A stretch of DNA of 42,242 nucleotides from Terriglobales bacterium (GCA_035517535.1 DATIYR010000125.1:1-42242); one strand, 5' to 3'; shown: positions 13,063 to 39,857, counted from the first letter of the stretch. Notes: generated by a model not told the origin, from the sequence alone. Program-made: numbers and translations.

Positions 13063-13529
13063 GGATGAAAAAACTTCCAGAAGTTGACGACGCAAAGCGA
13101 GTGATGAATGAGGCGCTGGACTGGTCGGTGTTCACGTGGCTCTTCCAAAAAGGTAAAGTCCGGGAAATTGCCGACCAGGCAAACGCCGCGCTGGACAAGC
13201 TAAACGCGGCGACTAAAGCAAAGTGGGACACCGAAAGCAGGTCTGCTTACAAGCACCTCACCGGCAAAGAGCGCCATTCACACGCCAATGGTGATGGCTC
13301 GACTCTTGTCGATTCGGAGCTCTCTGACTTTGTAACAAAAGTTAAAGAGGCTGACGAAGCTGCGCAGCGCGCGCGTCTCAGAGCGGAGGAGACCTTCGAC
13401 GAAGCCGAGCGTCAGTTGAACACGGAGTTGGCTCGAGAAGGTTGTCGCCAGGCCATCCATTCGTGGGAGTTGCACGAAAAAGCTATTCGCCGCGCAGAGA
13501 CGGCTCCCAATAAGGTCAAGGCGGGTTAG
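13059..13529 (+). CDS. Hypothetical coiled-coil protein, translationally coupled to the ABC1 kinase
   Basis: ATGA start/stop overlap with the upstream gene. An alternative ATG at 13065 has GGGAG 7 nt upstream. Charged helical sequence (..ADEAAQRARLRAEETFDEAERQLNTELAREG..). No family recognised. Confidence 0.5.
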   Translation: MRMKKLPEVDDAKRVMNEALDWSVFTWLFQKGKVREIADQANAALDKLNAATKAKWDTESRSAYKHLTGKERHSHANGDGSTLVDSELSDFVTKVKEADEAAQRARLRAEETFDEAERQLNTELAREGCRQAIHSWELHEKAIRRAETAPNKVKAG

Positions 13530-14605
13530 TCTTCTCGGCCAGCCAGGGGCGAGTTACTTCCCTTTTCATCCGTCTGCATCGGCGAACTGGGCGCCGCGAA
13601 CTTAGTTCCGCGCACCCGGGTTTCAATCACTTCAGAAATTCGTCGCAGCGCGTCCGCGCTCTGTGGCGAATCGAACCCGAAGAGCTGAAAAACGTGAGGC
13701 ATTCCTTTCCAGCTTTCAAGAACAGCTTCCGTTCCGTGATTACGAGCGTGGTCAACAAATGTCTTTATGCTGGGAAACAAAATCTCCGCGGTTCCAGCTT
13801 GGATGTATATCTCAGCAAGCCCGCCGAGGTTGGCGTGCACGGGCGAAACCAGCGGCTTTCGACGCTGTTCAGGTTTGCAGAACCAATCCCGCCATTGCCC
13901 CAGCATCGGCTCGCTGATCCAATCTGCGCTGCTCGGCTGGATCTGATCTAGACCAAAATCGGTAGCGGGCGATAACGCGATTGCCAAAGCGGGAGCAGCA
14001 AGACCAGCGTCCCGGATGCTTAGCAGCAGCGTAATCGCCAGGTGACCACCGGCGGAATCTCCCGCGACCACAAGGCGATCAGGGTCCGTGCCATTTTTCA
14101 AAAGCCAACCATACGCATTCAGCGCATCCTCAAGTTGCGCGGGGAAAAGATGTTCGGGCGCGAGGCGATAATCGAGAGCGAAGGTTTTCGACTTCGCTGC
14201 CAAAGTAATCAGGCTGATGAAATACTCATAACTTTTCGGATAAAAACTGTATCCGCCGCCATGAAAGTAAAGCAAAGTAATCGGGTCTTCTACATCGTTT
14301 GTTGTGAACCATGTTCCTGAGAACATGGTTTCGTCGGCCCGATTGAGGGTAACGCCGTTCATAAAGGGAGAGTGAATGGTGATCGAATCCAGATAGGAGC
14401 GTGCATCCTCCACATTCAGTTCGAATGCGGTGTTCAGCAGCTTGCCGAGGGCATCGCAGCCGGCTTCAACCGTCCAGTTCCACTGCGGGTAGCGACGGCC
14501 CCTGAGCGCCCGGCGCGCAGAAACTTCAATCGCAGATGCGATCAGTTGCGATGCGCTGCGGATCCGGTAGTGCGCGGGACCGGTAAATGCAATACGCGCG
14601 GACAT
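13526..14605 (-). CDS. Alpha/beta hydrolase, hormone-sensitive-lipase (family IV esterase) type
   Basis: 359 aa. Oxyanion motif LLYFHGGGYSF, nucleophile elbow VVAGDSAGGHLA, C-terminal His (GMPHVFQ). Last gene of the minus-strand array, 12 nt after the PPTase stop. Confidence 0.85.
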   Translation of the reverse strand: MSARIAFTGPAHYRIRSASQLIASAIEVSARRALRGRRYPQWNWTVEAGCDALGKLLNTAFELNVEDARSYLDSITIHSPFMNGVTLNRADETMFSGTWFTTNDVEDPITLLYFHGGGYSFYPKSYEYFISLITLAAKSKTFALDYRLAPEHLFPAQLEDALNAYGWLLKNGTDPDRLVVAGDSAGGHLAITLLLSIRDAGLAAPALAIALSPATDFGLDQIQPSSADWISEPMLGQWRDWFCKPEQRRKPLVSPVHANLGGLAEIYIQAGTAEILFPSIKTFVDHARNHGTEAVLESWKGMPHVFQLFGFDSPQSADALRRISEVIETRVRGTKFAAPSSPMQTDEKGSNSPLAGRED

Positions 14606-14617
14606 AAAAAACTTGAC

Positions 14618-15334
14618 TCAAGCGCATGCGCTCCAATAGTGCGGCGCAGACTTGAGTTGCACGGGACAATCCAAAGGCCAAGCGGCGGCAATGGTGCGAA
14701 CAAAACCACCACTCTGTTGCCACCACCCATGGAAGACGAGACCGCTTCCGTTGTGAATTCGCAGCCGACTCCAGCCGTTGATATCGCCCGAATCGGCTTC
14801 GTCTTCAACGGCTAACGATCGGGTGTCAATACGCAACCCTTCATGTAACGCTTTAAGTACGCTTTCCTTCGCACTCCAAAATAGCGCCACCAGGCGCATC
14901 CGACTTGGCGCTGGTGCAGCCGCAATAAACTGCTGTTCGTGTTCCGTAAAGTAGTCAGCGACAAACGCCGCGCTATGGGGCTCGACCAATTCAAGGTCGC
15001 ATCCCAGCGCGACATCGCCGTTTGCAACTGTGCAGAGAGATCTGCCCGCGCGATGGCTAATTGAAATCGGCAACTTCAGCGGACGTTCTTCAAGAAATAC
15101 TTCGGGTGCGCCGGAAGCAGCGGGGCGTATCTCTATGCGCGCCAAAACCTCGGGACGAAACGGTAACTGCAAATACCAAGCGACCGCGCACTTCGCAGTC
15201 CAACGTCCCAGCCGCCAGTCAGAGCGCCGCTTCGGAATGACAAAAGACTTGAGCCGGAGGAGTTCGGTTTCGCTGAAGAATTCGTCGTTCGTCGGTACGT
15301 CGGATTCGGTCTGCTCCAACCAATAAACATGCAT
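14618..15334 (-). CDS. Sfp/EntD-type 4'-phosphopantetheinyl transferase
   Basis: 238 aa. ..RRSDWRLGRWTAKCAV.., ..ISISHRAGRSLC.., ..LGCDLELVEP.. and ..FWSAKESVLKALHEGL.. match the conserved PPTase-superfamily motifs (G-x-D, W-x-x-KE-x-x-x-K). Confidence 0.85.
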   Translation of the reverse strand: MHVYWLEQTESDVPTNDEFFSETELLRLKSFVIPKRRSDWRLGRWTAKCAVAWYLQLPFRPEVLARIEIRPAASGAPEVFLEERPLKLPISISHRAGRSLCTVANGDVALGCDLELVEPHSAAFVADYFTEHEQQFIAAAPAPSRMRLVALFWSAKESVLKALHEGLRIDTRSLAVEDEADSGDINGWSRLRIHNGSGLVFHGWWQQSGGFVRTIAAAWPLDCPVQLKSAPHYWSACA

Positions 15335-15352: not shown

Positions 15353-18300
15353 TTATGCAGCTTGTACGGCAGCGATCTCTTGTTTTGCGCTCTCCTCTTC
15401 CCTTGCGATCCCGCGTTCGATCGCCCCGATCAGATACGGCCGCAGTTTCCCCGGCGGAATGATGCAATCGAGCGCGCCCACTTGCAGAGCACGGTGTACG
15501 CTGTGCACACGGTCGAACTCCGCCGCCGTTTCGCCCAACTTCTCCGAGTGCACTTTGGCGAATAACTCATCCCATTGCGCGCGCAGGCGACCCTTTTCTG
15601 CCCCTTCAGCTTTTGCCATTGCTTCAGCCAGTGGCTGCAGACGAGGGTCCTTGCGGGCTTTCGCCTCGACCTCGCTCGCAAAAACCACGGCCGCGGCCGG
15701 CGCTCCACCGATCACAGAAGCGTACGTCCCTTCGAGCGCTGCGACTTCCAATTGCTGATTCAGGGCGCGCGAGAAAACCACGTAAGCGCCACCGTGATAT
15801 CGCGAAATGACACAGAAGACCATCGGGCCTTTAAAATTCACCACGGCGCGACCGATCTCGGCACCGTATTCGAGCTGCAGCCGCCGCATGGATTCCGGCG
15901 AGCCATCAAAACCGGACAAGTTCGCAAGGACAACCACGGGTCGGTTGTTGCTGGCCGCATTTATCGCCCGCGCAACTTTCTTCGACGATTGCGGAAACAA
16001 CGTACCCGACGTCCATTGATCCGGCCCATCGGCAGGCACGAAGCCAAAACGAGGCAGTGGGCGAGATTCGAGGCCAATGAGGCAAACCGGATATCCTCCC
16101 AGGTGCGAATCCCATACGACCGCGGTTTCTGCGGCCCTCATCCCCGCCCACCGTTCGAGCGGAACATGGTCCTGGTCCATGGTTGCGAGCATCACGTTGC
16201 GAATGTCGAACGACTTCTTGCGCCCTGGATTGGTCTCGTCTGAGAGAATCTCTCCCACACGCGTGAATCCTTCTTCGCCGCCGGCATGCGGATAATCGCG
16301 GACATCGCGTTCGCGGAGATCGGCAGTTTCCGCGCGGCGTGGGAATCGCTCGCCTGGAGCAACGTAGGTGTGCTCATAGTGCCGAAAGAGAATCTGGCAG
16401 GCTTCGTCGAGGTCCTGCGCCCAATACTGCGCCTGGCCATTGACTCCCATGATGCGGTCATAACCACCGATGCCCTGGTTGTCTTCGGCGGAAATCCCTC
16501 CGGAATAATCGAGCGCACGTTTGCCGGTCAGCACCATGGCGGCTTTCGGCGTCATCACCAGAATTCCCCGCGTATGCATGAGCATGGTAGCCTCGGCATT
16601 CCAGTAAGGCTGCGCCCCAACGTTGATCCCATTAATAATGAGATTGACTTCGCCACCGGCTTGGGTGAACTCCACCAGGCGCCGCAACGCGCGTGCGATC
16701 CAATCCATATTTTCAACGCCGCTGCTCATGGAAATCTTGGCGCCGGCTGAAATCGGGAACCATTCGAGCGGGACTTTCATTTCTTCGGCGAGGTCGAGCG
16801 CGGCAATAATCCGGCGGCACTCCGGCTCGGCCAGTGCGCCCAGATCCTTACTGGGATCGCCAAGCAGCAACACCCGCGTCATTCCTTCGGGATATCTGGT
16901 AGTGAAGTTGCGAATCACCCCCGCGATAATGTTGGCCTTGTTTTGGCCGTATGGCCGGGAGACCGGCACCAGGCGATTCTCGGCACCGAGATCGTGCTCC
17001 ATGAATTCTCCAGGCGGGAATTCCGAGCGTGCATGTTCGCGCGGCGGCGTAATCAAGTTGACGATCTCGTACGGATAAATCATTCCCCGCTGGCGCATGC
17101 GCACGACTTTTTGTTTGTATTCATCCAGCGGTTTCATGGGTTCGAGTTGCTGGTCGGCAGGCCGGAAGCTGGTTACCATTCCCCGGCCGGCTGGACTCGA
17201 GATGCGGACCACCATGTCGCGTACTTCACCGGTGGCTGGATTAGGAATACGGGTGCGTACGACCACCTGCTCAAGCCCCAATCCTTGGGTGGCGGGAGTC
17301 AGCCGGCGCACAATGTCGCGCAATTCTTCCCGCTGCAAATTCAGTGGGGGCCAGATATATAAAAGGATGCGGTTCCACCACAGACGTCGATTAACCGGCC
17401 GGCTCGACTGAAAAAGACGGATGCTTGCCAGGGCTTCGGTAAACATACGTTCAAGGTGCGGCAGCTTCAGGATCCGGCCCGATTCATCGCGCACCGGTGT
17501 GACGTCCCGCACCTCGGCGCATGCAATCAAACGCTCGTCCTTCGGATTTTCTCGCGCGACACAGTGAAGCAGGTAAACATCCTCGACCGAGGGCAGCCGC
17601 TCGATATTGAAATTACTGAGCCGCCAGAGGTGTAGCCGCTTGGCCATCATCGGGTGGATGCCGCGAACCAGTTTTTCTTCCTCATAGCCGTTCGTTCCAG
17701 CCGGCCGGAAAGTGAAGTGCTGCATTCCGCCTGCGCCCTGGGCGTGGACTGAACTTGCAACCTCTACCACGATCCGGCGAATCAGGCGCGGGAACTTGAT
17801 TCCAGCAAGCACAGTCCGAAGTTCTTGTTGTGTGCAGTCCGCTTCAGCCGGCTGCCCTTCATGCCATGAGTAAAAGTCGAGAACGATGTCGTGATCTTCA
17901 GGAACATCCTTCAGCAACCCACAGATTCCAGTCGCCGCGTTTGCTAACTGCGCGTATTCGGTATGCGTGGTGAACATATGAATGCGTCGGCCTTCGTGTT
18001 CGTATTCTGCCGCGGCGTAGCAACGTCCATCGATATCCAACGAGCGGAAGTTCTCAAGCGCACGAATACGGTAATAGCGCCACATAATGGCTTCGAGCAT
18101 CAGCTTGCGCATGCCCATGCTCGACGAGGCAAACCGGCTCGAGAGCAGTCCGACCAGGGGTTGCGGGCACTCCACCAGTTCGCGCACCTGCTCGTGCCGG
18201 TCTGGCGCTTCCGGGTTCGCTGCGATGCGAGCGAGCTGCTGTTTCACTTTGTCGTAAACCTCTTTGCGGGCCCGCTCGAAAAGCGGCTGATCGAAGTAGC

Positions 18301-20953
18301 GATAACGCAGCTCCGAGGCCAAATCGCTTATGGCAGGAAATGCGCTGTTGCCCGCCGCAATGATGCGATCGAGAAGCGTTCTTTGCTCTTCGCCGGGTTC
18401 GAAGCCGCGGCGCTCGGCATCCTGCAATCGCCGTCTGAGCAGGCCGAGGACTGGCGCAACCTGCTGTTCTGTACGCTGATGAGACTTGTAGATCCACAAG
18501 AGAGCTCGCTCAAGCTGAGTAGAGCGACGCAAACTGTACACTCCGTAATGCGCCAGCGCCCGCCGCAGCGCCTCCACAAAATATGCAGGCAGCCCTTCGC
18601 CTTCGGTATCAAGACTGCGCAGAAAGGCGAAAAGAAAGGCTTCAGAGGTGGGCGCTTCGCCGCTCGAACGGTGGTCCACTTCAGGTTCGCGCTTAAACAA
18701 GGAGCAAACGTCTACGAAAATATTCAGGATTTCATCCTCGGCATCGCGCAGTTCCTCGCCCTCGATTGGCCGGGTCTTGGTCCACTCTGCAAGCTGATTC
18801 GCCGTTTGCCTGGGATCGACATCAAATCCCAGCATCAGCTGCCGCAGCTCATCCAACGCTTGACGATAATCAGCGGGAATCAAGTCTGGAACTTCTTCCC
18901 CGCAATACGACGCGCCAAAGTGAATGCGTTCTTCCTGGCCTTCAGGCTGTGCTGAGAGTTCGGCATCAATTTGAAACAGCGGCGCGCCAGTATCAACCTG
19001 CACATTGGGGATGATCATCACTTGGCGCACTCTTCCTGAGAATGGCGCCACCACCTGCATCTCCATCTTCATGGCTTCGAGCATCGCAAGCCGGCCGCCG
19101 ACAGAAACCGTATCGCCTGCCTTGACTGCGATGGAAGCCACCACGGCGGGAGCAGGTGCATGCACAATGCCACCGTCATCGCGCTCGATCTGATGCGAGA
19201 CGCCGTCCACCTCAATCCGATAACTCAATCCGTGGATGACCGAAACCACGTGGAAACGGCGGCCAAATGCTGTAAGCCAATGCTCATATTGGCCGAGGCG
19301 ATCGACTTCGACTTCGATGCGAGAGCGATCGACCTCTATGCGGTAATGCTGCGGGCCCACGCGAAAGACGTTGAGTGAATAAGAATGTCCGCCATGACGC
19401 AGTTCGGCAGTGCGTCCTATTTCGCTCCGTATCTGCGGCCTTCCACGCACCGCCGATGCATAGAACTGCGACTGCTCGATCGCGAGTTGAGCTTCGTAAG
19501 ATTCGATTGCGGCATGCAGGAGCGCGATATCTGCGTATTGCCGCGAAACATGATTTCCACTCGCCGCCAGCTGGTCCAGCCAGCCAATGTTCACATCCGC
19601 GCTTTTCACTTCCTTGCGGCTCAAGAGCTCCAACAGAAATGCTTTATTGCTGGCCCCACCTTTGATCACGACCACGCTCTCGCGCAGCACACGTTGCAGA
19701 CGGGCCAGGGCTTCGTTCCGGCTCTGACCATGGGCGATGATCTTGGCGATCATGGAATCGAAATCGGCGGGTACACAGTCGCCCTCGCCCACTCCCGTGT
19801 CCACCCGGATTCCGGCTCCGGTAGCAATCCGGAACCGCTCAACCACACCGGGCGCGGGCGCAAAACCATTTTCCGGATCTTCCGCGTTGAGGCGAACTTC
19901 AATCGCATGACCTTTTGTGGGCGGCGGGTCTCCGACCAGGGTTCCGCCACGTGCCACATGAATTTGCAGTTTGACGAGATCGAGCCCAGTTGTGCATTCT
20001 GTGACCGGATGTTCAACCTGCAAACGAGTATTCATTTCCATGAATGAGAAACTTTGTGATTCCGGCTGATACAGGAACTCGACTGTGCCCGCGTTGTAAT
20101 AATGTGCTGCCTTCGAAAGGCGCACCGCAGCCGCGTGCAGCTCCTCGTCCTGCTCCGGGGTGAGCATTGGGGATGGCGCTTCTTCAAGAATTTTCTGGTG
20201 CCGTCGCTGGATGGTGCAGTCGCGTACGCCCGCGGCCCACGTATTTCCAAAATGATCGGCGATCACCTGCACCTCAACGTGGCGCGCACCCTCGATCAGC
20301 CGTTCCATGAAAACCGTTGGATCGCCAAACGCTTTAAAAGCTTCGTTGCGGGCGCATTCGAATGCGTGAGGAAGTTCGTGCGCGAAATGAACCTGGCGGA
20401 TACCGTGCCCGCCGCCGCCAGCTGTCGCTTTAATAAGGAGCGGAAAACCCAGGCGTTCTCCTTGACGCAAGGCGTCATCCACGGTTTCAACCGGGCCGCC
20501 GCTCCAGGGTGCAACCGGTAGTTGCGCCTGTTCGGCCAGGAGCTTCGAGGCGATTTTGTCACCAACGTGACGCATGGTGTCGCCGTCAGGCCCAATGAAC
20601 ACAATGCCCATCTCGCGGCACAAATCGGCAAATGCAGCATGCTCGGCAACAAATCCCCATCCCACCCACACTGCCTCAGCGCGCGTCGCGGCGAGCGCTC
20701 TCTCCAGCCTCCCGTAATCAACGTACGCGCTTTTCGGCTGGCGGGTGCTCGCATCCAGAACCTGCGCTGGGCCGAGGCTAACGGCTTCATCAGCCTCGCG
20801 TACGTACATTGCGTAACGGTCGGGATCGGTGAACAGCGCGATGCTGTGCAAAGACGCACCGCGCTCCTGATTGAACTCACGCGCTGCATGGATGAATCGC
20901 ATGGCAGGTTCGCCACGATTCACGATTGCGACGCGTTTGAATTCGTAATTCAT
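15353..20953 (-). CDS. Single-chain multidomain acetyl/acyl-CoA carboxylase (BC - BCCP - central region - eukaryote-type carboxyltransferase)
   Basis: 1866 aa.
- N-terminal biotin carboxylase: MNYEFKRVAIVNRGEPAMRFIHAARE.., ATP-grasp.
- Biotinyl motif LEAMKMEM: Lys629, minus-strand AAG at 19067-19069.
- C-terminal CT: ..LANLSGFDGSPESMRRLQLEYGAEIGRAVVNFKGPMVFCVISRYHGGAYVVF.. resembles the homomeric eukaryotic ACC CT. Confidence 0.9.
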   Translation of the reverse strand: MNYEFKRVAIVNRGEPAMRFIHAAREFNQERGASLHSIALFTDPDRYAMYVREADEAVSLGPAQVLDASTRQPKSAYVDYGRLERALAATRAEAVWVGWGFVAEHAAFADLCREMGIVFIGPDGDTMRHVGDKIASKLLAEQAQLPVAPWSGGPVETVDDALRQGERLGFPLLIKATAGGGGHGIRQVHFAHELPHAFECARNEAFKAFGDPTVFMERLIEGARHVEVQVIADHFGNTWAAGVRDCTIQRRHQKILEEAPSPMLTPEQDEELHAAAVRLSKAAHYYNAGTVEFLYQPESQSFSFMEMNTRLQVEHPVTECTTGLDLVKLQIHVARGGTLVGDPPPTKGHAIEVRLNAEDPENGFAPAPGVVERFRIATGAGIRVDTGVGEGDCVPADFDSMIAKIIAHGQSRNEALARLQRVLRESVVVIKGGASNKAFLLELLSRKEVKSADVNIGWLDQLAASGNHVSRQYADIALLHAAIESYEAQLAIEQSQFYASAVRGRPQIRSEIGRTAELRHGGHSYSLNVFRVGPQHYRIEVDRSRIEVEVDRLGQYEHWLTAFGRRFHVVSVIHGLSYRIEVDGVSHQIERDDGGIVHAPAPAVVASIAVKAGDTVSVGGRLAMLEAMKMEMQVVAPFSGRVRQVMIIPNVQVDTGAPLFQIDAELSAQPEGQEERIHFGASYCGEEVPDLIPADYRQALDELRQLMLGFDVDPRQTANQLAEWTKTRPIEGEELRDAEDEILNIFVDVCSLFKREPEVDHRSSGEAPTSEAFLFAFLRSLDTEGEGLPAYFVEALRRALAHYGVYSLRRSTQLERALLWIYKSHQRTEQQVAPVLGLLRRRLQDAERRGFEPGEEQRTLLDRIIAAGNSAFPAISDLASELRYRYFDQPLFERARKEVYDKVKQQLARIAANPEAPDRHEQVRELVECPQPLVGLLSSRFASSSMGMRKLMLEAIMWRYYRIRALENFRSLDIDGRCYAAAEYEHEGRRIHMFTTHTEYAQLANAATGICGLLKDVPEDHDIVLDFYSWHEGQPAEADCTQQELRTVLAGIKFPRLIRRIVVEVASSVHAQGAGGMQHFTFRPAGTNGYEEEKLVRGIHPMMAKRLHLWRLSNFNIERLPSVEDVYLLHCVARENPKDERLIACAEVRDVTPVRDESGRILKLPHLERMFTEALASIRLFQSSRPVNRRLWWNRILLYIWPPLNLQREELRDIVRRLTPATQGLGLEQVVVRTRIPNPATGEVRDMVVRISSPAGRGMVTSFRPADQQLEPMKPLDEYKQKVVRMRQRGMIYPYEIVNLITPPREHARSEFPPGEFMEHDLGAENRLVPVSRPYGQNKANIIAGVIRNFTTRYPEGMTRVLLLGDPSKDLGALAEPECRRIIAALDLAEEMKVPLEWFPISAGAKISMSSGVENMDWIARALRRLVEFTQAGGEVNLIINGINVGAQPYWNAEATMLMHTRGILVMTPKAAMVLTGKRALDYSGGISAEDNQGIGGYDRIMGVNGQAQYWAQDLDEACQILFRHYEHTYVAPGERFPRRAETADLRERDVRDYPHAGGEEGFTRVGEILSDETNPGRKKSFDIRNVMLATMDQDHVPLERWAGMRAAETAVVWDSHLGGYPVCLIGLESRPLPRFGFVPADGPDQWTSGTLFPQSSKKVARAINAASNNRPVVVLANLSGFDGSPESMRRLQLEYGAEIGRAVVNFKGPMVFCVISRYHGGAYVVFSRALNQQLEVAALEGTYASVIGGAPAAAVVFASEVEAKARKDPRLQPLAEAMAKAEGAEKGRLRAQWDELFAKVHSEKLGETAAEFDRVHSVHRALQVGALDCIIPPGKLRPYLIGAIERGIAREEESAKQEIAAVQAA

Positions 20954-20985
20954 AAGGCCTCGATCGACGAGGATCTCGGCACACC

Positions 20986-29633: not shown

Positions 29634-31313
29634 TCACGCCGCCCGCTCAGCTTTAGCCGCGCGGCCATACAAAACGTCGGCTACATAATCCATATCTGTA
29701 ATCAAGCCAGCTTGCGCACTGTGCGTCGCGGGCAAATTCACTGTTAACTCAAATGCCGGTAATTCGGAGTTGCTCAGGCCGCCCGCCCCAATCAACCAAC
29801 GCAGACCACCCTCAGCAACTTTGAGCGCCGCATCGCGCGCACAAATCCTGCTGATCGCTGCCAGCCCGGCTTCATCAAATCGCCGGTTGGTTTTTTCGTT
29901 CAGTTTGTTTTCTGCCATCAGAGCTGCACGTCGCGCCAGACTGCCCGCGCATTCCGCGTAGGCGATCAACTCGCCGAGGCGAAGGAGAATGTGTTGATAG
30001 CGAGTAAGTCGTGCGACGCGCGTCTTCTCCATAATTTCCGCGAGCGCGTGCATCGCCAGCGCGGCATGGTCGGATCCAACTTTTGGATGTCGCCGATGCA
30101 ACTCTTCAAATTTCTTCGCCTGATCGTGATAATGCTGGCCACGTGTCTTCAAATGCGTCTGCCAGCGATCGCGGGCGATGGTCATCTCCATGATCTCGGA
30201 AGTGCCTTCGTAAATGATGGTGATGCGCACGTCGCGGCTGATCTTCTCCACCATGTACTCGTGCGTGTAGCCGTATCCGCCGAGCGCCTGAATGCTGGCC
30301 TCAGCCGCAGCATTCCCTGCTTCTGTCGCCATATACTTCGCGATCGCGCCTTCGGTATTGAGGCTGCCTTCGCCCGCGTCGATACGCTCGGCAGTTTCCT
30401 CGATGTAGGCACGCGCGGCTTCGAGTCGCACCACGTTGGGCACGATCAGCTTATGGGTGTAGCCTTGCTTTTCTGACAGCGGCGCGCCGGCTTGAATGCG
30501 CTTCGTCGAGTATGGGATGGCGCGATCGAGAGCCGACCATCCTGCGCCGAGACCAAATGCAGCCACCATCAGGCGCGTGTAGCCAAATACAGCCTGCGCC
30601 TGAATCAAGCCCTGACCTTCGACGCCTCCAACCAGTCGGTCCGCCGGAACGAAAACGTTATCGAGCGCCAGCGCCGCGGTGTTGCTCAGACGAATGCCGT
30701 GTTTATCTTCCGGCTCATCATGCGTGAAGCCTTTCAGTCCTTTTTCGAGGATGAACCAACTGGGACCACTCGGGGTGTTGGCCAGCACCGTGTACGCGTC
30801 AGCGATGCCGCCATTGCTGATCCATTGCTTGTTGCCGGTGATTTTGTAACCAACAATTTTGCCGTCTTCGATCACCCGCTCAGCCGTCGTGCGCAGCGCG
30901 CCCAGGTCACTACCGGCCTCGGGCTCTGTCGCGCCGTAGGCAAAAAGAATTCCTTCTTCCGCAATGTGCGACAGCCAGATCTTTTTTTGCTCCGGCGTGG
31001 CGCCGACGGTGATGGGATCGCTGCCGAGAAAGGTTGCAAGCACGGAAGTGGCGACGCCTAGATCGATGCGGGCCATCTCCTCGCACACGCAGTACACGTC
31101 GAAGGTGTTGCCGCCCATGCCGCCATACTCTTCGGGAATGAATAAAAGCTGAATTCCCAGCTTGTCCGGGCTGCACATGTGGTGGACCACATCGAGTGGA
31201 CATTCGTCTTTTTCGTCCAGCTCGATCAGGGTTTCGTCGGGCAGACGCTTTTTCGCGAATTCGCGCAGCGATTTCAAGCTCAACTTGAGTGTTTTGGCGG
31301 TAATCATTGTCAT
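29634..31313 (-). CDS. Acyl-CoA dehydrogenase with a C-terminal extension of about 170 aa
   Basis: 559 aa. ..[17 protein letters not shown].., ..[10 protein letters not shown].., catalytic-base region [12 protein letters not shown]. Starts 4 nt after the etfA stop. The ATG at 31307 is an alternative start with better Shine-Dalgarno spacing. Confidence 0.9.
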
Positions 31314-31317: not shown

Positions 31318-32304
31318 TCATTTCGCAGCGACGCCGTGCAGTTCGCGAACTTTGCTGGTCATCTCGGGCAGGAACTCGAGAATGTCATCGATGATTCCCA
31401 CGTCCGCCACTTGAAAAATTGGGGCCTTGGGATTTTTGTTGATGGCGATGATGAACGGATTGCCTTTCACCCCGGCCAAATGCTGCGACGAACCGCTGAT
31501 TCCGCAGGCCATATAAACCTTCGGCTTCACTGTTTTTCCTGACGAACCCACCTGGCGCGATTTTTCCAGCCATTTGGCATCGACCACCGGACGCGAGCAG
31601 GAAACCGCCGCGCCCATAGCTTCGGCAAGCTCCTCTGCGATCGGAACATTGTCTTTTTCTTGTATGCCGCGGCCGATCGAAACCAGGACCGGGTACTTGG
31701 TGATATCAACGTCGCCAGATTCGGCCATGATCGTCTGCAGGTAACGCCGCCCTGCTGTGAGCGGGCCAACTTCTGCGGACTTGTCGATTACTGCCCCGGC
31801 CACCGCTCCGGCTTCTGTGGACTTGAACGCGCCGGGGCGAATTGTGATCACAGCGCCGGAGGAAATATCACATTTCATATGCGCGCTGACCTGGCCTCCG
31901 AATTCCTGGCGGACAACCTTGAGAAATGTGCTCTCGACGCCTTCGATCTCGACGACATCGGAAACATAGGCCGCGTTCAACTTGATGGAAAGTCCGGGAG
32001 CGAGATCGATGCCGAAGTGCGCGTGTGGAATTAGAAAAACGCTGTCCGGCGGAAGCACTTTGACCAGCGCCTTCCGGATCAGTTCCGCATTGGGATACGC
32101 AAGCACGTCGTACGAAATTTTCCAGACCTCTTTGTATGAGGCACAGACCGTTGTGCAAGCGGTTTCCAAGTCCGAACCCGCGCCGCTAACGATGGCGGTA
32201 ACTGGAGCCGCCGGATCAATCTGCCGTGCCGCGGCCAAAAGCTCAGCAGCGGAGTCGTCGACCACGCCGCCTCTATGCACGATGTAAGTGAAAATTGCAG
32301 GCAT
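31318..32304 (-). CDS. etfA: Electron transfer flavoprotein, alpha subunit
   Basis: 328 aa. FAD-binding C-terminal signature ..[43 protein letters not shown]... 1-nt overlap (TAATG) with etfB. Confidence 0.9.
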
Positions 32305-33095
32305 TATTTCAACCCTCCTTTGGCTGCGACCAACTCCAGAACCTTGTCAATGTTTTCTTCGCGGCTTCCTTCGAGAATTTCAGCGCCTTTACCGACTGTG
32401 GGCACGAAGTAATCAATGCGTTGCACCTTTGCGGCTTTAGCACCGACTGAGTTCGGATCAAGCCCCAAATCAGAGACGCCGTAAGTCGCGATCGGAACGG
32501 AAGCGACCGCGCGAATACCTCGCATTCCGACATATCGCGGGTCGTTGATACCGGTCTGAATTGAGAGCACGCATGGCAGGTCAATTTCGCTGATCTCTTT
32601 GTTCCCGCCTTCAATTTCGCGGCTGATTTTCAGCTTATTGCCATCAATCACTTCGATCGCGCTGACAAGAGAGGCGAATGGATAGTCGAGCATCGCCGCC
32701 AGCATGCCGCCAACTTCCGCCGCGCCCGCCTCGGCCTGAACACCGGTCAGGATCAGGTCGTAACTACCTTGTTCGACAAAGCGCTTGAGGATCGCCGCGA
32801 TTCCGCGTCCGTCTGAACCGGCGAAGGTATCGTCGGAAATCAGCACGCCGTGGTTGGCGCCCATTGCCATCTCGCGGCGCAACACCTCTTCGTCATCTTC
32901 GTTGCCGACAGTGACCACGGTGACCTTCCCACCCACGCGTCCGACGATCTGCAGCGCCTCTTCGACCGCGTAGTTGTCCGGTTCGTTAATTGAATAAACC
33001 AACTCATCGCGCTCGATATCGCTGCCGGCAGCATTGAGTTGAATCTCGTTTTCCGATGTGTCGGGTACTCGCTTTACGCAAACTAGAATTTCCAC
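32304..33095 (-). CDS. etfB: Electron transfer flavoprotein, beta subunit
   Basis: (V)EILVCVKRVPDTSENEIQL.. is the typical EtfB N-terminus. I place the start at the GTG at 33095, with GGGAGG 5 nt upstream and 2 nt after the Fe-S protein stop. The track start at 33116 is another GTG that overlaps the upstream gene by 19 nt. Confidence 0.9.
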   Translation of the reverse strand: MEILVCVKRVPDTSENEIQLNAAGSDIERDELVYSINEPDNYAVEEALQIVGRVGGKVTVVTVGNEDDEEVLRREMAMGANHGVLISDDTFAGSDGRGIAAILKRFVEQGSYDLILTGVQAEAGAAEVGGMLAAMLDYPFASLVSAIEVIDGNKLKISREIEGGNKEISEIDLPCVLSIQTGINDPRYVGMRGIRAVASVPIATYGVSDLGLDPNSVGAKAAKVQRIDYFVPTVGKGAEILEGSREENIDKVLELVAAKGGLK

Positions 33096-33097: not shown

Positions 33098-35221
33098 TTA
33101 CCTCCCTGCAACGCACTCTGCCTGCATTTCGAACGTGCTCTTTGTCTGCGGCGGAATTTCGCGGACCATCTGCTGCTCTGCCAATTCGGCAATGTCGATC
33201 GCCGTCATCTTTCCTTCTAAACCAGCGACTTTGATTGCGTCTTCAATGTTGGCCATGCAGAACGGGCAGGCCGTGACGATCACATTCGCCCCTGCTTCGG
33301 CCGCCATACGCACACGCTTGACCCCGATGCGCTCTTCCTCTTTCGGCTCGTAAAACAGCATCAACCCACCTCCGCCACAACAAAACGACCGGTCGCGCGA
33401 ACGCTTCATTTCAACTCGCCTCAGGCCAGGAATCGCATCCAGCACCTCGCGCGGATCGTCGTAGATTTGGTTATGGCGGCCTAGGTAGCACGGGTCGTGG
33501 TAGGTATAAACCTTGTCGCCTTCGATCGGATTGAACTTGACCTTCCCTGCTTTGACTCCGCGCGCAATCACCTGGCTGATATGCTCAACCGGCGGTACAT
33601 TCTTGTAGTCATGCTTGAGGGCGTTAAGCGCGTGGGGATCGGCGGTGACAATCTTCTGCACGCCGGAAGCTCTAATCGCCTCGGCATTTTGGTCGCGCAG
33701 TGAAATGAACAGCAGTTCTTCCCCGAAGCGTCGAACCTCGTGACCGCTGTCTTTTTCGGCCGCGCCCAAAATTCCGAAGTTTTCCCCAATGTGTTCGAGG
33801 ATCTTGGCCGTGGCGCGCCCAATGGAGTGCATGCGCTCGTCGTAGGACGTGATACTGTCCACGAAATAGAGCGTGTCAGCGCCGTTCTTGTCGAGGGTTT
33901 TCACGCGGCAGGTCTGCTGGAAATCTTTGGCATTGATCCAGTCGCTGCGCTTTTTCTCCATCTTGCCGTAAGGATTGCCGCGACTTTCGAGCGCCTTCAG
34001 CGGCTTCTGCAATGACTGAGGAACGCGCCCTTCATCGACCAGACCTCGCCGCAAATCGACAATCTTGTCGATGTACTCAATCAGCAACGGACACTCTTCC
34101 TCACAAGCGCCGCAGGTCGTGCACGACCAGATTTCATCCTCGGAGTAAATACCGCCGACCAGCGCTTTGCCATTTCCTGTGGGGCCGAACATCGGATAGT
34201 GCTGGAAGGCATAGTCGCGAGCCTTAATGGTCAAGAAACGCGGCGAGAGCGGACGTCCAGCCGCATTCGCTGGGCAATTGTCGGAGCAGCGTCCGCAGTC
34301 GGCGCAGGAATAAAAATCGAGCATGTGCTTCCAGGTGAAATCTTCAAACGTTTTCACGCCGAAGGACGTCAATTGATCCAGGTTCTCTTCGCTGACATCC
34401 CAGCGCACCGGCTTCAGAACTTCGCGATCGAGTTTCGAGAAGTAAACATTGAACAGAGACGTTTCAACATGGAACTGGATCCCAAATGGCCGGTAGCAAA
34501 GCAAGAAATAGAACGTAATCTCGTGGAGCAGATATCCGGCGAAGCAAAACTGCCCGATGCTCGAGAGTGATGCGGACACAAAGACCGTCTTCAACAGCCA
34601 GGGCAGCGAGTATGCGGCGGAGAAATGAGCGATCTGTCCCGCCTGCATCTGCCCCGCGGCTTTCGCGGCTTCAAACAAGCTGTCGGCGAGCATCAGAATC
34701 GCGATGAGTGCCAGCAGAAAAACCGCATCTGCTTTATGCGCCTTGCCAAACTTCGAAGGCACTTCGTAGCGCGCGGGCTTGAATACCACGCGGCGCACGA
34801 TAGCAAAAATCATGCACAGGAAAACGACCGTGGCGGCGTAGTCGGTCACGACTTCGTAGACGTGGCCGAGTTCCCCGCGCATTCCTGGCATTACAAAGTC
34901 AGGGGACGTGCCCAGGATCAGCACAGTGAAGGCGCGCATTGCGAGGAGAATGAATCCGGCGAAGAAGAGAATGTGAACAGTGCCGGCGACTTTGTAGCGA
35001 GGATGCTTCCACTGCCCCAGCCAGAACTTGCCCACTCTGCCCAGCCGCTCTAAAGGATGATCAAAGCGCAAATCACTTTGCGCTCGAACTAGCGGCACCA
35101 TCCTTCGCATCACGATGTAAGCGAAGCTTCCTACTCCAAGAAAATGAATGCACAGAAACAGCGCGTATCCCGGGGCAAGCCAGGATCCCAATTGCGCCGC
35201 AGCCTGAGTACTCGCCACCAT
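33098..35221 (-). CDS. Membrane-anchored Fe-S oxidoreductase (HdrD/GlpC-like, two 4Fe-4S motifs + CCG domains); ETF:quinone oxidoreductase-like
   Basis: 707 aa. About 6 N-terminal TM helices with conserved His. CADCGRCSDNCP and CTTCGACEEECP ferredoxin-type motifs. Cys-rich CCG-type regions (..SFCCGGGG.., ..HDPCYLGRHN.., ..VTACPFCM..). Confidence 0.85.
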   Translation of the reverse strand: MVASTQAAAQLGSWLAPGYALFLCIHFLGVGSFAYIVMRRMVPLVRAQSDLRFDHPLERLGRVGKFWLGQWKHPRYKVAGTVHILFFAGFILLAMRAFTVLILGTSPDFVMPGMRGELGHVYEVVTDYAATVVFLCMIFAIVRRVVFKPARYEVPSKFGKAHKADAVFLLALIAILMLADSLFEAAKAAGQMQAGQIAHFSAAYSLPWLLKTVFVSASLSSIGQFCFAGYLLHEITFYFLLCYRPFGIQFHVETSLFNVYFSKLDREVLKPVRWDVSEENLDQLTSFGVKTFEDFTWKHMLDFYSCADCGRCSDNCPANAAGRPLSPRFLTIKARDYAFQHYPMFGPTGNGKALVGGIYSEDEIWSCTTCGACEEECPLLIEYIDKIVDLRRGLVDEGRVPQSLQKPLKALESRGNPYGKMEKKRSDWINAKDFQQTCRVKTLDKNGADTLYFVDSITSYDERMHSIGRATAKILEHIGENFGILGAAEKDSGHEVRRFGEELLFISLRDQNAEAIRASGVQKIVTADPHALNALKHDYKNVPPVEHISQVIARGVKAGKVKFNPIEGDKVYTYHDPCYLGRHNQIYDDPREVLDAIPGLRRVEMKRSRDRSFCCGGGGLMLFYEPKEEERIGVKRVRMAAEAGANVIVTACPFCMANIEDAIKVAGLEGKMTAIDIAELAEQQMVREIPPQTKSTFEMQAECVAGR

Positions 35222-36868: not shown

Positions 36869-36876
36869 AAACTCTC

Positions 36877-37191
36877 CTATTTCTGCTCGAACGAATTCAT
36901 CCAGTTCAGCTCGCGAAACGAAAGCCGCGATGCCAGCTTCACCAGTTTGAGCGCTTTGTACACGTGCACGTTCACGCCAAGTAAAACCACCGTGATTCCT
37001 TTCTCCTCTGCCACGCATATGAACTCTTCCATGGCAGGAATGGCGCTGGCATTGATCCGGCGCACGGCTGAAAAATCCATCACAACCTCGCGAATATTGT
37101 CGGCCAGCATCTCGCTGGCTTTTTCCAACATTGAAGCTAGCTGCGCTTCGTCGAGATTTCGCAACACCGAAACTGTTGCCATAACATTCAT
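36877..37191 (-). CDS. STAS-domain protein (SpoIIAA/anti-sigma-antagonist fold)
   Basis: 104 aa. ..VVMDFSAVRRINASAIPAMEEFICVAEEKGITVVLLGVNVHVYKALKLVKLASRLSF.. follows the STAS consensus (lvlDlsgV.fiDSsg...l......g..l.l.gv...v...l...gl...f). Starts 2 nt after the adhE stop. Confidence 0.7.
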   Translation of the reverse strand: MNVMATVSVLRNLDEAQLASMLEKASEMLADNIREVVMDFSAVRRINASAIPAMEEFICVAEEKGITVVLLGVNVHVYKALKLVKLASRLSFRELNWMNSFEQK

Positions 37192-37193
37192 CC

Positions 37194-39857
37194 CTAGGCG
37201 GTCTTACCGTGCTGGGCAGCAACCACGTCTGCCGTGCCGCGACCCGAGTATGCCTTCCAAAACAGTTCGACCAATTCCTTCACTAACGGCATGCGCGGAT
37301 TCGATCGCCACGAAGGATCGTTGTAAGCCGCATCGGCCAGCTCAGGCACTGCGCGCTCGAATTCTTCTTTCGAAATACCTAGCCCCGCAATGGAGTGGGG
37401 GAAATCCAGTTTGTCGAGCAACTGCTCAACCGCGGCAATGAGCTTGTTTATCTTTTCTTCAACCGTCGTTCCACCGAGACCCAGCAGATCCGCTACCGTG
37501 GCGTATTTTTTATGCGCGACATATCCCTGGGTGTAAGGCGAGGGCATAAACTTTGCCGGCACGGCCGCGTTGTAGGCAATCACGTGCGGCAGCATGAGCG
37601 CGTTTGCCCGGCCATGCGCAACAGCGAAACGCGCTCCGAACGCGTGCGCCAGCGCGTGATTCACTCCCACGGAAGCATTCGAAAATGCCATGGCGGCAAT
37701 GCACGCGGCGTTGTGCATCATGGTGCGTGCCTCTTCGTCCTGGGGATACTCGTACGCGATCGGCAGATATTTAAAGACGAGCCGGATCGCCTGCATGGCA
37801 TAAGCGTCCGTGTACGGCGAGGCATAATTCGACACTCCCGCCTCGAGTGCATGCGTCAGGCAATCGATGCCGGTATCTGCCGTGAGCCCTTTCGGCATGG
37901 ACATGACGAATTGCGGATCGACAATCGCGACGTCCGGTGTCAATGAATAATCAGCCAGCGTGATCTTGCGGCCATGCTTTTTATCGAGAAGAACTGCGAA
38001 CGGCGTAACCTCGCTCCCAGTGCCGCTGGTGGTGGGAATCGCGATCAGTCGGGCCTTGATCACCTTCTCAGTCGGAAACTCAACTACGCGTTTTCGCAGA
38101 TCGAGGAACGGAGCTGCGAGTTCTTCGAGATCTGCGTTCGGCGACTCGTATTTGAGCTTCATGATCTTCGCCGCATCGATCACCGAACCGCCGCCCAGCG
38201 CAATGATCTGATCGGCCTGATAAAACTTCAGCCCTTCCACCCCCTCTAACACGACCTTCGCTTCCGGTTCCGCGTCCGGAATCACGGAAAGGTGAACGTG
38301 GGTCTCCGGCGGGATGTAGCGGCGCACAATATCGACGAGTCCCATTCGCTCCAGCGCCGGATTAGTCAGAACAATGGTCGAGCGCGATGCGAATTGCGCC
38401 ACGTTCTCGACCGCATTCATGTTGAAATAAATATGGTTGGGCACGCGGAACCACATATGTGCTTGTGTCCTTCGCGCAACGCGCTTGATGTTGAGATAGT
38501 GATAGATGTTGACGTTGTCAGTGGTGCTGTTACCCCCGCCGGTGCCGCAACCAAATGCGAATGTGGGGACGAGATCGTTGTAAACCGCGCCCAGGGCACC
38601 AATCGAGCCCGGTGAGTTCACGATGATCCGCCCGGCGTTGATCACCTCGCTGAACTTGCGAATGATTTCGTCGTTATGCGAGAAAATAACCGCGGTATGC
38701 CCGAGCCCGCCGGCGTGGTTCACATCCACACAAACCTTTAACGCTTCTTCCGAGGATTTCGCACGATAAACCGCGAGCACAGGGAAAAGCTTTTCAACCG
38801 AGAGCGGATGATCGGCTCCCACGCCCTGAATCGGCGCCACCAGAAGTTTCGTTCTCGGCTTGACCGTTAATCCGATAAAGCGCGCTATCGCGGTCGCTTT
38901 CTGGCCGACCGCCATGGGCTGCATGAACCCGGTCTGTGGATCGATCACCGTGCGCGCCAGCAGCCTGGTTTCTTTTTCATTGCAGATGTGCGCGCCCAGC
39001 TCAGCAAACTTTTTAAGGGCGGCATCGTAAATCTCATCGTCGATGACGACCGTCTGCTCGGAAGCACAGATCGTTCCGTTGTCGAAGGTTTTCGAGATGA
39101 TGATGTCGACGATCGCAGCATTCAGATCGGCGGTCTTCTCCAGATAAACGGGCGTATTCCCTGCGCCCACTCCTAACGCTGGCTTGCCCGAGCTGTAGGC
39201 TGCTTTCACGGCGTTCGGTCCGCCGGTGGCATCGATCAGCGCCACATCTTTGTGGTGCATCAGGTAGGCATTGTCTTCCAGCGTGTGGGTCCCGAGGCAG
39301 GCAAAAACCCCTTCAGGCGCACCATGCGCAACGGCTGCTTCGTACATCACCTTTACCGCTTCCGAGCAGCACGCCCAGGCTTTCGGGTGCGGGCTGAAGA
39401 TCACGGCATTCCGCGTTTTCAGCGCCATGATGCACTTGAACAGAACTGTGGAGGTGGGATTGGTGATCGGCAGCATGGAGAAAATCACGCCGATCGGTTC
39501 GGCCACTTCGACCAGATTGCGCTCGGGATACTCGCGAATGATGCCGACAGTTTTTTTGTCTTTTATGTAGTTGTAGGCAAACTCGGTGGCCACCATGTTC
39601 TTGATGACCTTATCTTCGAAGACCCCGAGTTTGGTCTCCTCAACGGCAAGCCGCGCCAAGTGCTGCGCCTGCTCAAGCCCGGCGAGCACCACCGCCTTCA
39701 CTATGCGGTCCACTTCTTCCTGGGTGAATTGGCCAAACACCGCGGCCGCGGTGCGCGCTTGAGTGACGATCCGTTCGAGATAAGCGATCCGTTCTTTGCT
39801 GAGTTCTTCCGCATCCGCTGGAGCGGGCGGCTGTTCGACTGCTTCACTTGCGATCAT
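37194..39857 (-). CDS. adhE: Bifunctional aldehyde (CoA-acylating) / alcohol dehydrogenase
   Basis: 887 aa. The N-terminal ALDH domain has catalytic Cys in SKTFDNGTICASEQ. The C-terminal part is an iron-type ADH domain (..FGCGTGGGNSTTD.., ..GVNHALAHAFGARF..). Collinear with AdhE over the full length. Confidence 0.95.
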   Translation of the reverse strand: MIASEAVEQPPAPADAEELSKERIAYLERIVTQARTAAAVFGQFTQEEVDRIVKAVVLAGLEQAQHLARLAVEETKLGVFEDKVIKNMVATEFAYNYIKDKKTVGIIREYPERNLVEVAEPIGVIFSMLPITNPTSTVLFKCIMALKTRNAVIFSPHPKAWACCSEAVKVMYEAAVAHGAPEGVFACLGTHTLEDNAYLMHHKDVALIDATGGPNAVKAAYSSGKPALGVGAGNTPVYLEKTADLNAAIVDIIISKTFDNGTICASEQTVVIDDEIYDAALKKFAELGAHICNEKETRLLARTVIDPQTGFMQPMAVGQKATAIARFIGLTVKPRTKLLVAPIQGVGADHPLSVEKLFPVLAVYRAKSSEEALKVCVDVNHAGGLGHTAVIFSHNDEIIRKFSEVINAGRIIVNSPGSIGALGAVYNDLVPTFAFGCGTGGGNSTTDNVNIYHYLNIKRVARRTQAHMWFRVPNHIYFNMNAVENVAQFASRSTIVLTNPALERMGLVDIVRRYIPPETHVHLSVIPDAEPEAKVVLEGVEGLKFYQADQIIALGGGSVIDAAKIMKLKYESPNADLEELAAPFLDLRKRVVEFPTEKVIKARLIAIPTTSGTGSEVTPFAVLLDKKHGRKITLADYSLTPDVAIVDPQFVMSMPKGLTADTGIDCLTHALEAGVSNYASPYTDAYAMQAIRLVFKYLPIAYEYPQDEEARTMMHNAACIAAMAFSNASVGVNHALAHAFGARFAVAHGRANALMLPHVIAYNAAVPAKFMPSPYTQGYVAHKKYATVADLLGLGGTTVEEKINKLIAAVEQLLDKLDFPHSIAGLGISKEEFERAVPELADAAYNDPSWRSNPRMPLVKELVELFWKAYSGRGTADVVAAQHGKTA

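Follow-up and report, generated by a model that had tools for sequence, protein, structure and literature searches.

How does an iterative lipid synthase that has no enoyl reductase of its own reduce the double bonds of its growing chain, and do the genes packed around it belong to it? Both questions are raised by a 42,242-nt stretch of Terriglobales bacterium GCA_035517535.1 (DATIYR010000125.1:1-42242; hereafter the window, with coordinates counted from its first letter). Open reading frame (ORF) listing and start-site inspection place eleven consecutive minus-strand genes at 13526-39857, one of which encodes a PfaA-like synthase. Tentatively, and at a little less than an even chance, we read this array as a Type R synthase operon in which an acyl-CoA dehydrogenase (ACAD) family flavoprotein is the trans enoyl reductase, fed from menaquinol via EtfD and the electron-transfer flavoprotein (ETF) EtfAB, and in which a wax ester synthase/diacylglycerol acyltransferase (WS/DGAT) esterifies the product. 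Three features set the locus apart: a putatively quinone-wired ACAD, a modular alcohol-reductase/WS-DGAT cassette, and acyl carrier proteins (ACPs) with threonine at the attachment site. The genes, in array order, are as follows.

37194-39857, minus strand: adhE, bifunctional aldehyde-CoA/alcohol dehydrogenase, 887 amino acids (aa); Pfam Aldedh, Fe-ADH and ADH_Fe_C
36877-37191, minus strand: STAS-domain protein, 104 aa; Pfam STAS, 31.6 bits
35276-36868, minus strand: WS/DGAT acyltransferase, 530 aa; Pfam WS_DGAT_cat and WS_DGAT_C
33098-35221, minus strand: EtfD/EMO-type membrane ETF:menaquinone oxidoreductase (an Fe-S/CCG oxidoreductase), 707 aa; Pfam Fer4 and CCG
32304-33095, minus strand: etfB, ETF small subunit, 263 aa, GTG start; Pfam ETF
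31318-32304, minus strand: etfA, ETF large subunit, 328 aa; Pfam ETF and ETF_alpha, PDB matches
29634-31313, minus strand: long ACAD-family flavoprotein, 559 aa; Pfam ACAD N, M and C domains
20986-29583, minus strand: polyketide synthase (PKS), PfaA-like "Type R" iterative synthase, 2865 aa; Pfam, NCBIfam and motifs
15353-20953, minus strand: single-chain eukaryote-like acyl-CoA carboxylase (ACC), 1866 aa; Pfam biotin carboxylase (BC)-biotin carboxyl carrier protein (BCCP)-central-carboxyltransferase (CT)
14618-15334, minus strand: Sfp/HetI-type phosphopantetheinyl transferase (PPTase), 238 aa; Pfam ACPS, weak NCBIfam HetI match
13526-14605, minus strand: hormone-sensitive-lipase-family esterase (the hydrolase), 359 aa; Pfam Abhydrolase_3

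From adhE to the hydrolase the gaps are 2, 8, 54, 2, -1, 4, 50, 32, 18 and 12 nt, the start of etfA overlapping the stop of etfB by 1 nt. A preliminary description of this DNA had given the same genes, gaps and domain contents, and the match with the ORF listing is exact; Pfam and NCBIfam upheld all eleven assignments. It had also reported that most genes have their own Shine-Dalgarno (SD) sequence and that no convincing terminator hairpin lies inside the array, and both observations hold. SD-like purine-rich sequence precedes adhE, WS/DGAT, the EtfD gene, etfB, etfA, ACAD, PKS and ACC, and is weak or absent at the STAS, PPTase and hydrolase starts. Terminator-like hairpins lie in none of the array's intergenic gaps and were not enriched over shuffled sequence (18 against 21.9 expected, and 16 against 14.7). 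Promoter-like sites in the window were at or below shuffled expectation, and an Rfam search of the whole window returned zero families.

A conserved core and an accessory cassette

Homologues of the synthase at E <= 1e-50 number more than 7,800 proteins, the named ones belonging to Terriglobales, Ca. Sulfotelmatobacter or Acidobacteriia metagenome-assembled genomes (MAGs). We sought relatives in one genome per GTDB species using six peptide patterns and detected relatives of the synthase in 252 species genomes. The best 80 loci of these 252 species, with synthase identity of 63-76%, formed the synteny sample and were compared with the window proteins by tblastn. All 80 are labelled Terriglobia-type except two with odd bin names, and the relatives include Korobacteraceae MAGs. 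Counts are given over the 69 loci with at least 9 kb upstream, the 69 with enough sequence downstream, or the 64 with both flanks.

The EtfD gene, etfB, etfA and ACAD lie directly upstream of the synthase in 69/69 loci. Downstream, the PPTase is found in 68/69 and the ACC is kept in 62/69 (missing in 7/69), and the hydrolase is present in only 11/69. Outside the core the neighbourhoods are wholly different between loci; the flanks of one (L011), for example, hold peptidoglycan enzymes, an outer-membrane barrel protein and a response regulator. Because the arrangement recurs in dozens of species with differing flanks, it is beyond chance. The array is a conserved seven-gene core plus accessory genes, not an indivisible eleven-gene entity, and adhE-STAS-WS/DGAT is an accessory cassette. 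WS/DGAT genes are placed as follows.

36 of 64 loci: adhE-STAS-WS/DGAT upstream, as in the window
1 of 64: the trio inverted downstream (L030)
3 of 64: an inverted downstream pair, 3-hydroxy-3-methylglutaryl-CoA (HMG-CoA) reductase-family gene plus a second WS/DGAT
4 of 64: other WS/DGAT placements
20 of 64: WS/DGAT absent within 10 kb

The preliminary description had proposed one self-contained eleven-gene system and a synteny check of the whole block. Conservation extends to the core but not to the cassette or the hydrolase, and with the absences counted above self-containment does not survive. The proposed link of WS/DGAT to the core does, since 44/64 relatives have such a gene within 10 kb of it, in at least five arrangements. 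This modularity defines minimal gene sets, namely the core with or without ACC and with or without the alcohol-reductase/WS-DGAT pair.

The long ACAD and the missing enoyl reductase

Pfam and motif mapping give the synthase the order KS1-AT-KS2-ACPx3-KR-DH (ketosynthase, acyltransferase, second ketosynthase, ACPs, ketoreductase, dehydratase), with KS1 at residues 7-420, AT at 611-900 and the second KS-like domain at about 1020-1560; enoyl reductase (ER) and thioesterase (TE) domains are both absent by these methods. Two internal features are used below.

24904-26526, minus strand: second KS-like domain (KS2, formerly "CLF", chain-length factor), from motif mapping
23614-24576, minus strand: three tandem polyunsaturated fatty acid (PUFA)-type ACPs, with Thr codons at 24466-24468, 24085-24087 and 23746-23748

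KS1 has a Cys-His-His triad, the AT motifs GHSLG and HAFH are of malonyl type, the KR reads YSAAN, and the sole DH, with the motif HQIDGTPVLP, is of PKS type (PS-DH/PKS_DH_N). KS2 also keeps Cys-His-His, with C1279 in TQINSACAS and histidines in FVSHETYT and KGFTGHAMG. Among 120 close homologues its Cys motif is found in 66, the first His motif in all 120 and the second in 84, and the Cys motif recurs in 56/62 full-length distant representatives. As judged from these motifs, KS2 is probably a second active ketosynthase, which would give the synthase two.

Distant representatives were found with the KS2 segment; nine were looked up and the contexts of eight are tabulated here, with KS2 identity to the window.

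L087, 50%: ACAD (553 aa)-synthase-PPTase, nothing else related
L089, 43%: ACAD-synthase-PPTase-single-chain ACC
L086, 45%: Oxidored_FMN/Old Yellow Enzyme (OYE) gene directly upstream of the synthase
L088, 39%: synthase-PPTase-CT
L090, 44%: accC-BCCP-CT-synthase, PPTase fused
L093 (GCA_964365265.1), 47%: synthase-BioY-accC-BCCP (19165-22188)
P0241 locus, 39%: synthase (PPTase fused)-CT
L091 (holding the relative P0183, with Ser in its ACPs), 45%: carboxylase parts 8 kb off

L087 and L089 encode ACADs orthologous to the window ACAD over its full length, C-terminal extension included (66% and 47% identity), and their genes sit 33 and 16 nt, respectively, upstream of the synthase. Neither contig has ETF or EtfD genes nearby, and the flanks are unrelated. 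Other ACADs near such clusters are distant paralogues of 28-33% identity. The presence of the same long ACAD in these two lineages, with an OYE in its slot in L086, argues strongly against mere juxtaposition of the synthase with a beta-oxidation operon, and together with the lack of an ER domain these contexts favour a trans enoyl-reductase role. As far as sequence comparison can tell, the long ACAD is a dedicated partner of the synthase in a subclade that includes the window; its embedding with EtfAB and EtfD is specific to Terriglobales. The preliminary suggestion that the redox module supplies the missing enoyl reduction thereby gains comparative support, from the long ACAD without ETF or EtfD in two lineages and from the OYE in a third.

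The ACAD has its catalytic Glu in YEGT at residue 368. Its best NCBIfam matches, both far below cut-off, are the acryloyl-CoA reductase AcrC and cyclohexane-1-carbonyl-CoA dehydrogenase, with weaker matches to MbtN and to prolyl-carrier-protein dehydrogenases (PigA, RedW). The 175-aa C-terminal extension has no match in Pfam, nor among PDB sequences even at E <= 10. Upstream, the EtfD protein matches PDB 9OJN_A, mycobacterial EtfD, at E = 1.4e-86, and has about five N-terminal transmembrane helices, two CxxCxxCxxxC ([4Fe-4S]) motifs and one Cx(n)CCG motif. 9OJN is the solved structure of mycobacterial EtfD (PMC13083937), which is the ETF:menaquinone oxidoreductase of beta-oxidation (PMC13083937, PMC8593149), and a linear-cluster ([3Fe-4S] Cys) motif is reported in the EtfD homologues of Acidobacterium capsulatum (PMC13083937). 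In the PDB, EtfB is closest to the non-bifurcating ETF of M. methylotrophus and EtfA to a bifurcating one. EtfB lacks the segment G[RK]QA[IV]DGDT[AG]QVG common to four bifurcating ETF structures, which we take to have a role in FAD binding, and reads TGVQAEAGAAEVGG there. We therefore lean, on sequence features, towards a non-bifurcating ETF.

The same three components make up the ACAD-EtfAB-EtfD/EMO chains known from M. tuberculosis and M. smegmatis (EtfD) and S. aciditrophicus (EMO). The window's set differs from these in lying in a biosynthetic operon beside a megasynthase and in the unique 175-aa extension of its ACAD, and its substrate may be ACP-bound rather than CoA-bound. The enoyl-/acyl-CoA couple has an E0' of about -10 mV. 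This lies above the E0' of -74 mV that PMC10734219 gives for menaquinone, so quinol-driven enoyl reduction would be thermodynamically downhill. In enoyl-CoA respiration of Syntrophus aciditrophicus, electrons pass from methylmenaquinol through EMO, ETF and ACAD to enoyl-CoA (PMC8805022).

We propose that ACC would make malonyl-CoA, which the malonyl-type AT would load onto the ACPs, and that the chain would be elongated by two KS domains, reduced by the KR and dehydrated by the DH. Because the synthase has no ER domain, the trans-2-enoyl intermediate would be reduced in trans by the ACAD, whose FAD would be re-reduced by EtfAB with electrons that EtfD draws from menaquinol; enoyl-CoA respiration has been shown to run this way. 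Each elongation cycle would consume one quinol and one NAD(P)H, and lipid synthesis would thus be tied to the redox state of the respiratory chain. The WS/DGAT would then pass the finished acyl chain, taken from the synthase itself or by way of CoA, to an alcohol or diacylglycerol, with AdhE providing or consuming the alcohol or acyl-CoA partner; where the cassette is present, as in the window and some 60% of its relatives, the outcome would be a neutral storage ester. A fuller proposal joins three claims: that the enoyl electrons come from menaquinol through EtfD, EtfAB and the long ACAD and not from NAD(P)H, that excess reducing power is stored in this way as neutral esters at low oxygen, and that the ACPs are phosphopantetheinylated on threonine. 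Lipid synthesis would on this view branch off from respiration, as enoyl respiration put to anabolic use. Taken jointly, we regard these claims as possible but doubtful.

If the ACAD, ETF and EtfD do act as the enoyl reductase, no lipid synthase before this one would have been shown to run on the quinol pool. Soil bacteria would also gain a mechanism of redox balancing and carbon storage under fluctuating oxygen, and lipid biomarkers of soils or sediments might be traced to a new source. Acidic soils and peat count Terriglobales (the Koribacter, Sulfotelmatobacter and Acidoferrum lineages) among their most abundant bacteria.

Several observations weigh against our reading of the array. The OYE replacement is known from a single contig, on which the gene is split by a probable frameshift, and a metagenome scan for OYE-synthase adjacency with the OYE-linked relative (P0150) gave one uninformative fragment. 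Beside the synthase, five of the eight distant contexts lack both an ACAD and an OYE, so that enoyl reduction is either supplied elsewhere or not always needed. The signals on ETF type are mixed, the N-terminal VCVKRVPDT of EtfB resembling bifurcating ETFs. The direction of electron flow is a comparative prediction, and co-transcription of the genes as one operon is predicted from gaps, gene order and conservation; internal promoters could lie in the 50- and 54-nt gaps. Part of the synteny is due to shared ancestry, since the 80 loci belong to a single order. Threonine at the attachment site makes activation of the ACPs non-textbook. AdhE scores as an ordinary acetaldehyde-CoA/ethanol (C2) enzyme, and esterification is not obligatory, as the 20/64 relatives without WS/DGAT within 10 kb indicate. 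Finally, characterised ACAD homologues in polyketide and non-ribosomal peptide pathways are dehydrogenases (MbtN and the prolyl-carrier-protein dehydrogenases).

This last point leads to the alternative that survives best, oxidative tailoring, which we consider unlikely though by no means negligible. Here the ACAD would be an acyl-ACP or acyl-CoA dehydrogenase desaturating the starter or the finished chain, and EtfAB and EtfD would pass the electrons on to menaquinone, as is normal in beta-oxidation. The ACADs characterised in carrier-protein pathways act in this sense, MbtN, PigA and RedW being among the matches, and the role established for EtfD itself is to connect ETF with menaquinone in beta-oxidation (PMC13083937, PMC8593149). 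The window also contains another ACAD gene (41141-42226) and glyoxylate-shunt genes. However, a tailoring role leaves the synthase without an enoyl reductase despite its KR and DH, does not explain the OYE ene-reductase in the ACAD slot of L086, and demands a saturated substrate, which is beyond this synthase alone.

The putative ester cassette

AdhE passes the NCBIfam equivalog NF010378 (1134.6 bits against a cut-off of 951) and, at 80-86% identity in the 38 relatives that carry adhE, is the most conserved protein of the block. WS/DGAT passes TIGR02946 (352.1 bits against 309.95) and has the HHxxxDG motif, as HHCLADG, at residue 138. The STAS gene travels with both, including in the inverted copy of L030.

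L084 (25775-28920), L025, L031 and L064 lack the adhE cassette and have, downstream of the PPTase, an HMG-CoA-reductase-family gene with a second WS/DGAT. The protein has 513 aa and an extra N-terminal domain. A role as mevalonate enzyme was set aside, since the protein scores 346 against an equivalog cut-off of 442 and its gene has WS/DGAT as partner instead of genes of the mevalonate pathway. Judging by family membership, it may be a non-orthologous alcohol-forming reductase. The AdhE and HMG-CoA-reductase families are both four-electron thioester-to-alcohol reductases, and the pairing of WS/DGAT with one or the other suggests that alcohol is made for the ester. AdhE could instead supply ethanol, for ethyl esters, or turn ethanol into acetyl-CoA for ACC.

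The preliminary description had gone further and modelled a self-contained wax-ester route in which AdhE makes the fatty alcohol, WS/DGAT condenses it with the acyl chain, and the whole is a fermentative electron sink. We consider this distinctly unlikely. In its favour, AdhE typically works under anaerobic conditions, and beside the core WS/DGAT is paired with AdhE or, in three relatives, with an HMG-CoA-reductase-family enzyme. Against it, AdhE passes as an acetaldehyde/ethanol equivalog with an identity that fits a housekeeping-type substrate, so the claim that it makes fatty alcohol is not supported; we know of no AdhE with long-chain activity. The cassette is also dispensable in a third of relatives, and AdhE could equally feed acetyl-CoA from ethanol to ACC or supply ethanol as the acyl acceptor.

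The likeness to the wax-ester fermentation of Euglena is conceptual. The Euglena electron sink is induced anaerobically; its mitochondrial pathway builds chains with thiolase and without malonyl units, and ends in a fatty acyl-CoA reductase and a wax synthase. Enoyl reduction in it has been proposed to run from low-potential quinol via ETF and an ACAD-type enzyme. The window, in contrast, has a malonyl-dependent megasynthase (HAFH, its own ACC) and an acetaldehyde/ethanol-type AdhE, and only the wax-synthase family is common to both.

The lack of an acyl-CoA ligase, which the preliminary description regarded as a gap, need not be one if an HHxxxDG acyltransferase off-loads the synthase directly. 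In phthiocerol dimycocerosate synthesis, the product of Mas, an iterative type-I synthase without TE, is esterified to an alcohol by the HHxxxDG acyltransferase PapA5, which off-loads directly from Mas and requires neither acyl-CoA ligase nor TE. PapA5 is not of the WS/DGAT family and Mas has its own ER domain, so off-loading by WS/DGAT would be an analogy.

The separability of the trio also bears on whether the array is no more than two or three independent operons (EtfD-EtfBA-ACAD, PKS-ACC-PPTase and adhE-STAS-WS/DGAT) that happen to adjoin, which we judge improbable. The module borders coincide exactly with the 50- and 54-nt gaps, the trio is absent or inverted (L030) in the loci tabulated above, EtfD homologues serve general beta-oxidation elsewhere, and common descent within one order contributes to the synteny. 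Nevertheless, ACAD-PKS adjacency is kept in 69/69 loci despite scrambled outer flanks, two distant lineages whose surroundings are unrelated have the same long ACAD 16-33 nt upstream of the synthase, and WS/DGAT has joined the core anew in several independent arrangements. Equally improbable is a synthase that works without enoyl reduction to give a conjugated or hydroxylated chain, flanking genes only tailoring or exporting it: enediyne PKSE and aryl-polyene systems dispense with this step, KS-AT-ACP-KR-DH without ER is the layout of PKSE-type synthases and five of the eight distant relatives have no adjacent reductase, but ACAD or OYE partners in four lineages point to C=C redox chemistry on the chain, and the company of WS/DGAT and ACC, joined in relatives by a PHB_acc_N regulator and by lipase-like hydrolases, indicates a bulk lipid, not a trace metabolite.

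Carrier proteins, synthase partners and neighbouring genes

The ACP scaffold is clearly PUFA-type: KTGYPKEMLDLDLDLEADLG. At the phosphopantetheine site, however, all three ACPs read DLG[VI]DT (within EADLG[VI]DTVKQAE), with Thr for the Ser of the PUFA-synthase motif LGIDS. Homologues of the synthase carry 3-6 ACPs, and Thr occupies the site in 537/537 ACP repeats of the 120 close homologues. It is the only residue at the site in 59/62 distant representatives (KS2 identity 36-53%); one relative, P0183 (locus L091), has Ser at the same aligned position. A literature search for Thr carrier proteins found no precedent, and we know of no characterised carrier protein that is phosphopantetheinylated on Thr. 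If the ACPs are so modified, the known chemistry of PPTases would be widened.

Type R was defined by Shulse & Allen 2011 as a secondary-lipid synthase with a pfaA homologue of the order KS-MAT-CLF-ACP(3-6)-KR (MAT, malonyl acyltransferase) followed by a PPTase, and occurs in Ca. Koribacter versatilis, Ca. Solibacter usitatus, Elusimicrobium and Roseiflexus (PMC3098273). The Ca. Koribacter versatilis cluster has an ACC gene between synthase and PPTase, and the survey assigned no product (PMC3098273). The window shares both the domain order and the order PKS-ACC-PPTase. That survey covered only the pfa-homologous core, and it reports neither ACAD, EtfAB, EtfD, WS/DGAT, STAS or AdhE partners nor a catalytic Cys in the "CLF" or Thr ACPs (PMC3098273). 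Our full-text literature search found no description of an ACAD/ETF/EtfD/WS-DGAT/AdhE association with a synthase. The preliminary view that the gene combination is uncharacterised therefore needs dividing: the synthase-ACC-PPTase core has been on record since 2011, whereas the redox and ester modules appear undescribed. To our knowledge, the product is known for no member of this synthase family.

Compared with PfaABCDE, the synthase resembles PfaA in its N-terminal KS-AT, its tandem ACPs (KTGYP...EADLGID-) and its KR-DH tail, and the use of a dedicated Sfp/HetI-type PPTase is shared. The best NCBIfam match of the synthase is indeed PfaA (TIGR02813), with its best stretch at residues 8-946, but at 923.1 bits it stays below the cut-off of 1010.1. 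PfaB is missing, and neither the FabA-type DH/isomerase of PfaC nor PfaD (an FMN enoyl reductase) was found in the eleven genes or the scanned flanking ORFs. The window synthase also has an extra KS in the same polypeptide, and an ACAD stands in place of the ER partner. These differences make a cis-polyunsaturated product unlikely.

The PPTase and a carboxylase are family-wide partners of the synthase. In nine sampled lineages, the PPTase is adjacent to or fused with the synthase in eight, and a carboxylase component accompanies it in seven. The private carboxylase takes varied forms in distant lineages (CT only, accC-BCCP-CT, or BioY-accC-BCCP), and the need for one predates the ACAD link and is more widespread. 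The window ACC has all five Pfam domains including ACC_central, and the biotin motif AMKM at residue 627; it matches yeast and human ACC in the PDB, and its orthologue in L089 is full length at 41% identity. It shares the BC-BCCP-central-CT order and a length of about 1,870 aa with eukaryotic ACC and the single-chain bacterial ACC of Saccharopolyspora erythraea (PMC6491548), and differs from both in being encoded inside a synthase operon. A role as long-chain acyl-CoA carboxylase (LCC) was set aside, the protein being of the 1,866-aa ACC_central type and the AT having the malonyl motif HAFH. The hydrolase, with HGGG at residue 115 and GDSAG at 182 and with NCBIfam hormone-sensitive-lipase subfamilies below cut-off, is an occasional accessory gene.

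Upstream of the array lie two small ORFs and then the second ACAD. Two features here may belong to the unit.

39995-40378, minus strand: 127-aa ORF with a Gly/hydrophobic-rich centre
39923-39956, minus strand: tandem 14-nt direct repeat GTCGTTAGAAGAAG, about 2.4 copies, read from the sequence

The 127-aa ORF has no match in Pfam/family searches. Its homologues (38-54% identity) adjoin the core in 14/69 relatives, in either orientation (L008, L011, L012, L018, L020, L036 and L040 among them), and a terminator-like hairpin lies upstream of it at 40549-40529. It is probably the first gene of the unit, and its product may be a small component not yet described. Where relatives have no adhE cassette, a homologue often stands directly upstream of the EtfD gene, so the trio seems to have been inserted as a cassette into a unit that existed before it. 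The repeat sits in the 137 nt that separate adhE from the 127-aa ORF and, from its tandem form and position, may be a candidate operator or regulator binding site.

The second ACAD (41141-42226) is VLCAD-like and truncated by the window end, and isocitrate lyase and malate synthase genes lie farther downstream of the array, at 6537-9630. This is a neighbourhood of acetyl-unit and fatty-acid metabolism. The second ACAD was not detected in the flanks of relatives by tblastn, and the flanking genes inspected there by their Pfam annotation included neither isocitrate lyase nor malate synthase.

In the trio-less loci L084 (1245-3812), L025, L041 and L058, a PHB_acc_N gene, of the polyhydroxyalkanoate-granule regulator type, lies upstream of the EtfD gene. 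In the same region are a 287-aa ORF and a gene for a small alpha/beta hydrolase that weakly matches thioesterases/lipases. These neighbours hint at storage-inclusion biology.

The two close relatives with odd bin names, L023 and L069, are binned as Eremiobacteraceae and Bryobacteraceae. Regulators with Pfam TrmB, HTH_10 and HVO_A0563_N, domains presumably typical of haloarchaea, flank the cluster of L093. Together these placements could reflect a wider taxonomic spread, horizontal transfer or mis-binning.

A GMC oxidoreductase gene follows the PPTase or hydrolase in 35/69 relatives (for example L002, 25745-27421) and passes the cholesterol-oxidase equivalog at 881.7 against a cut-off of 850; it is missing from the window, which has a 180-aa ORF in its place. 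A convergent gene for an ABC1/UbiB-family atypical kinase (11392-13062, plus strand) borders the downstream end of the array. It recurs beside the cluster in 19/69 relatives, in many of them convergent and downstream, and in L084 (1-247) upstream.

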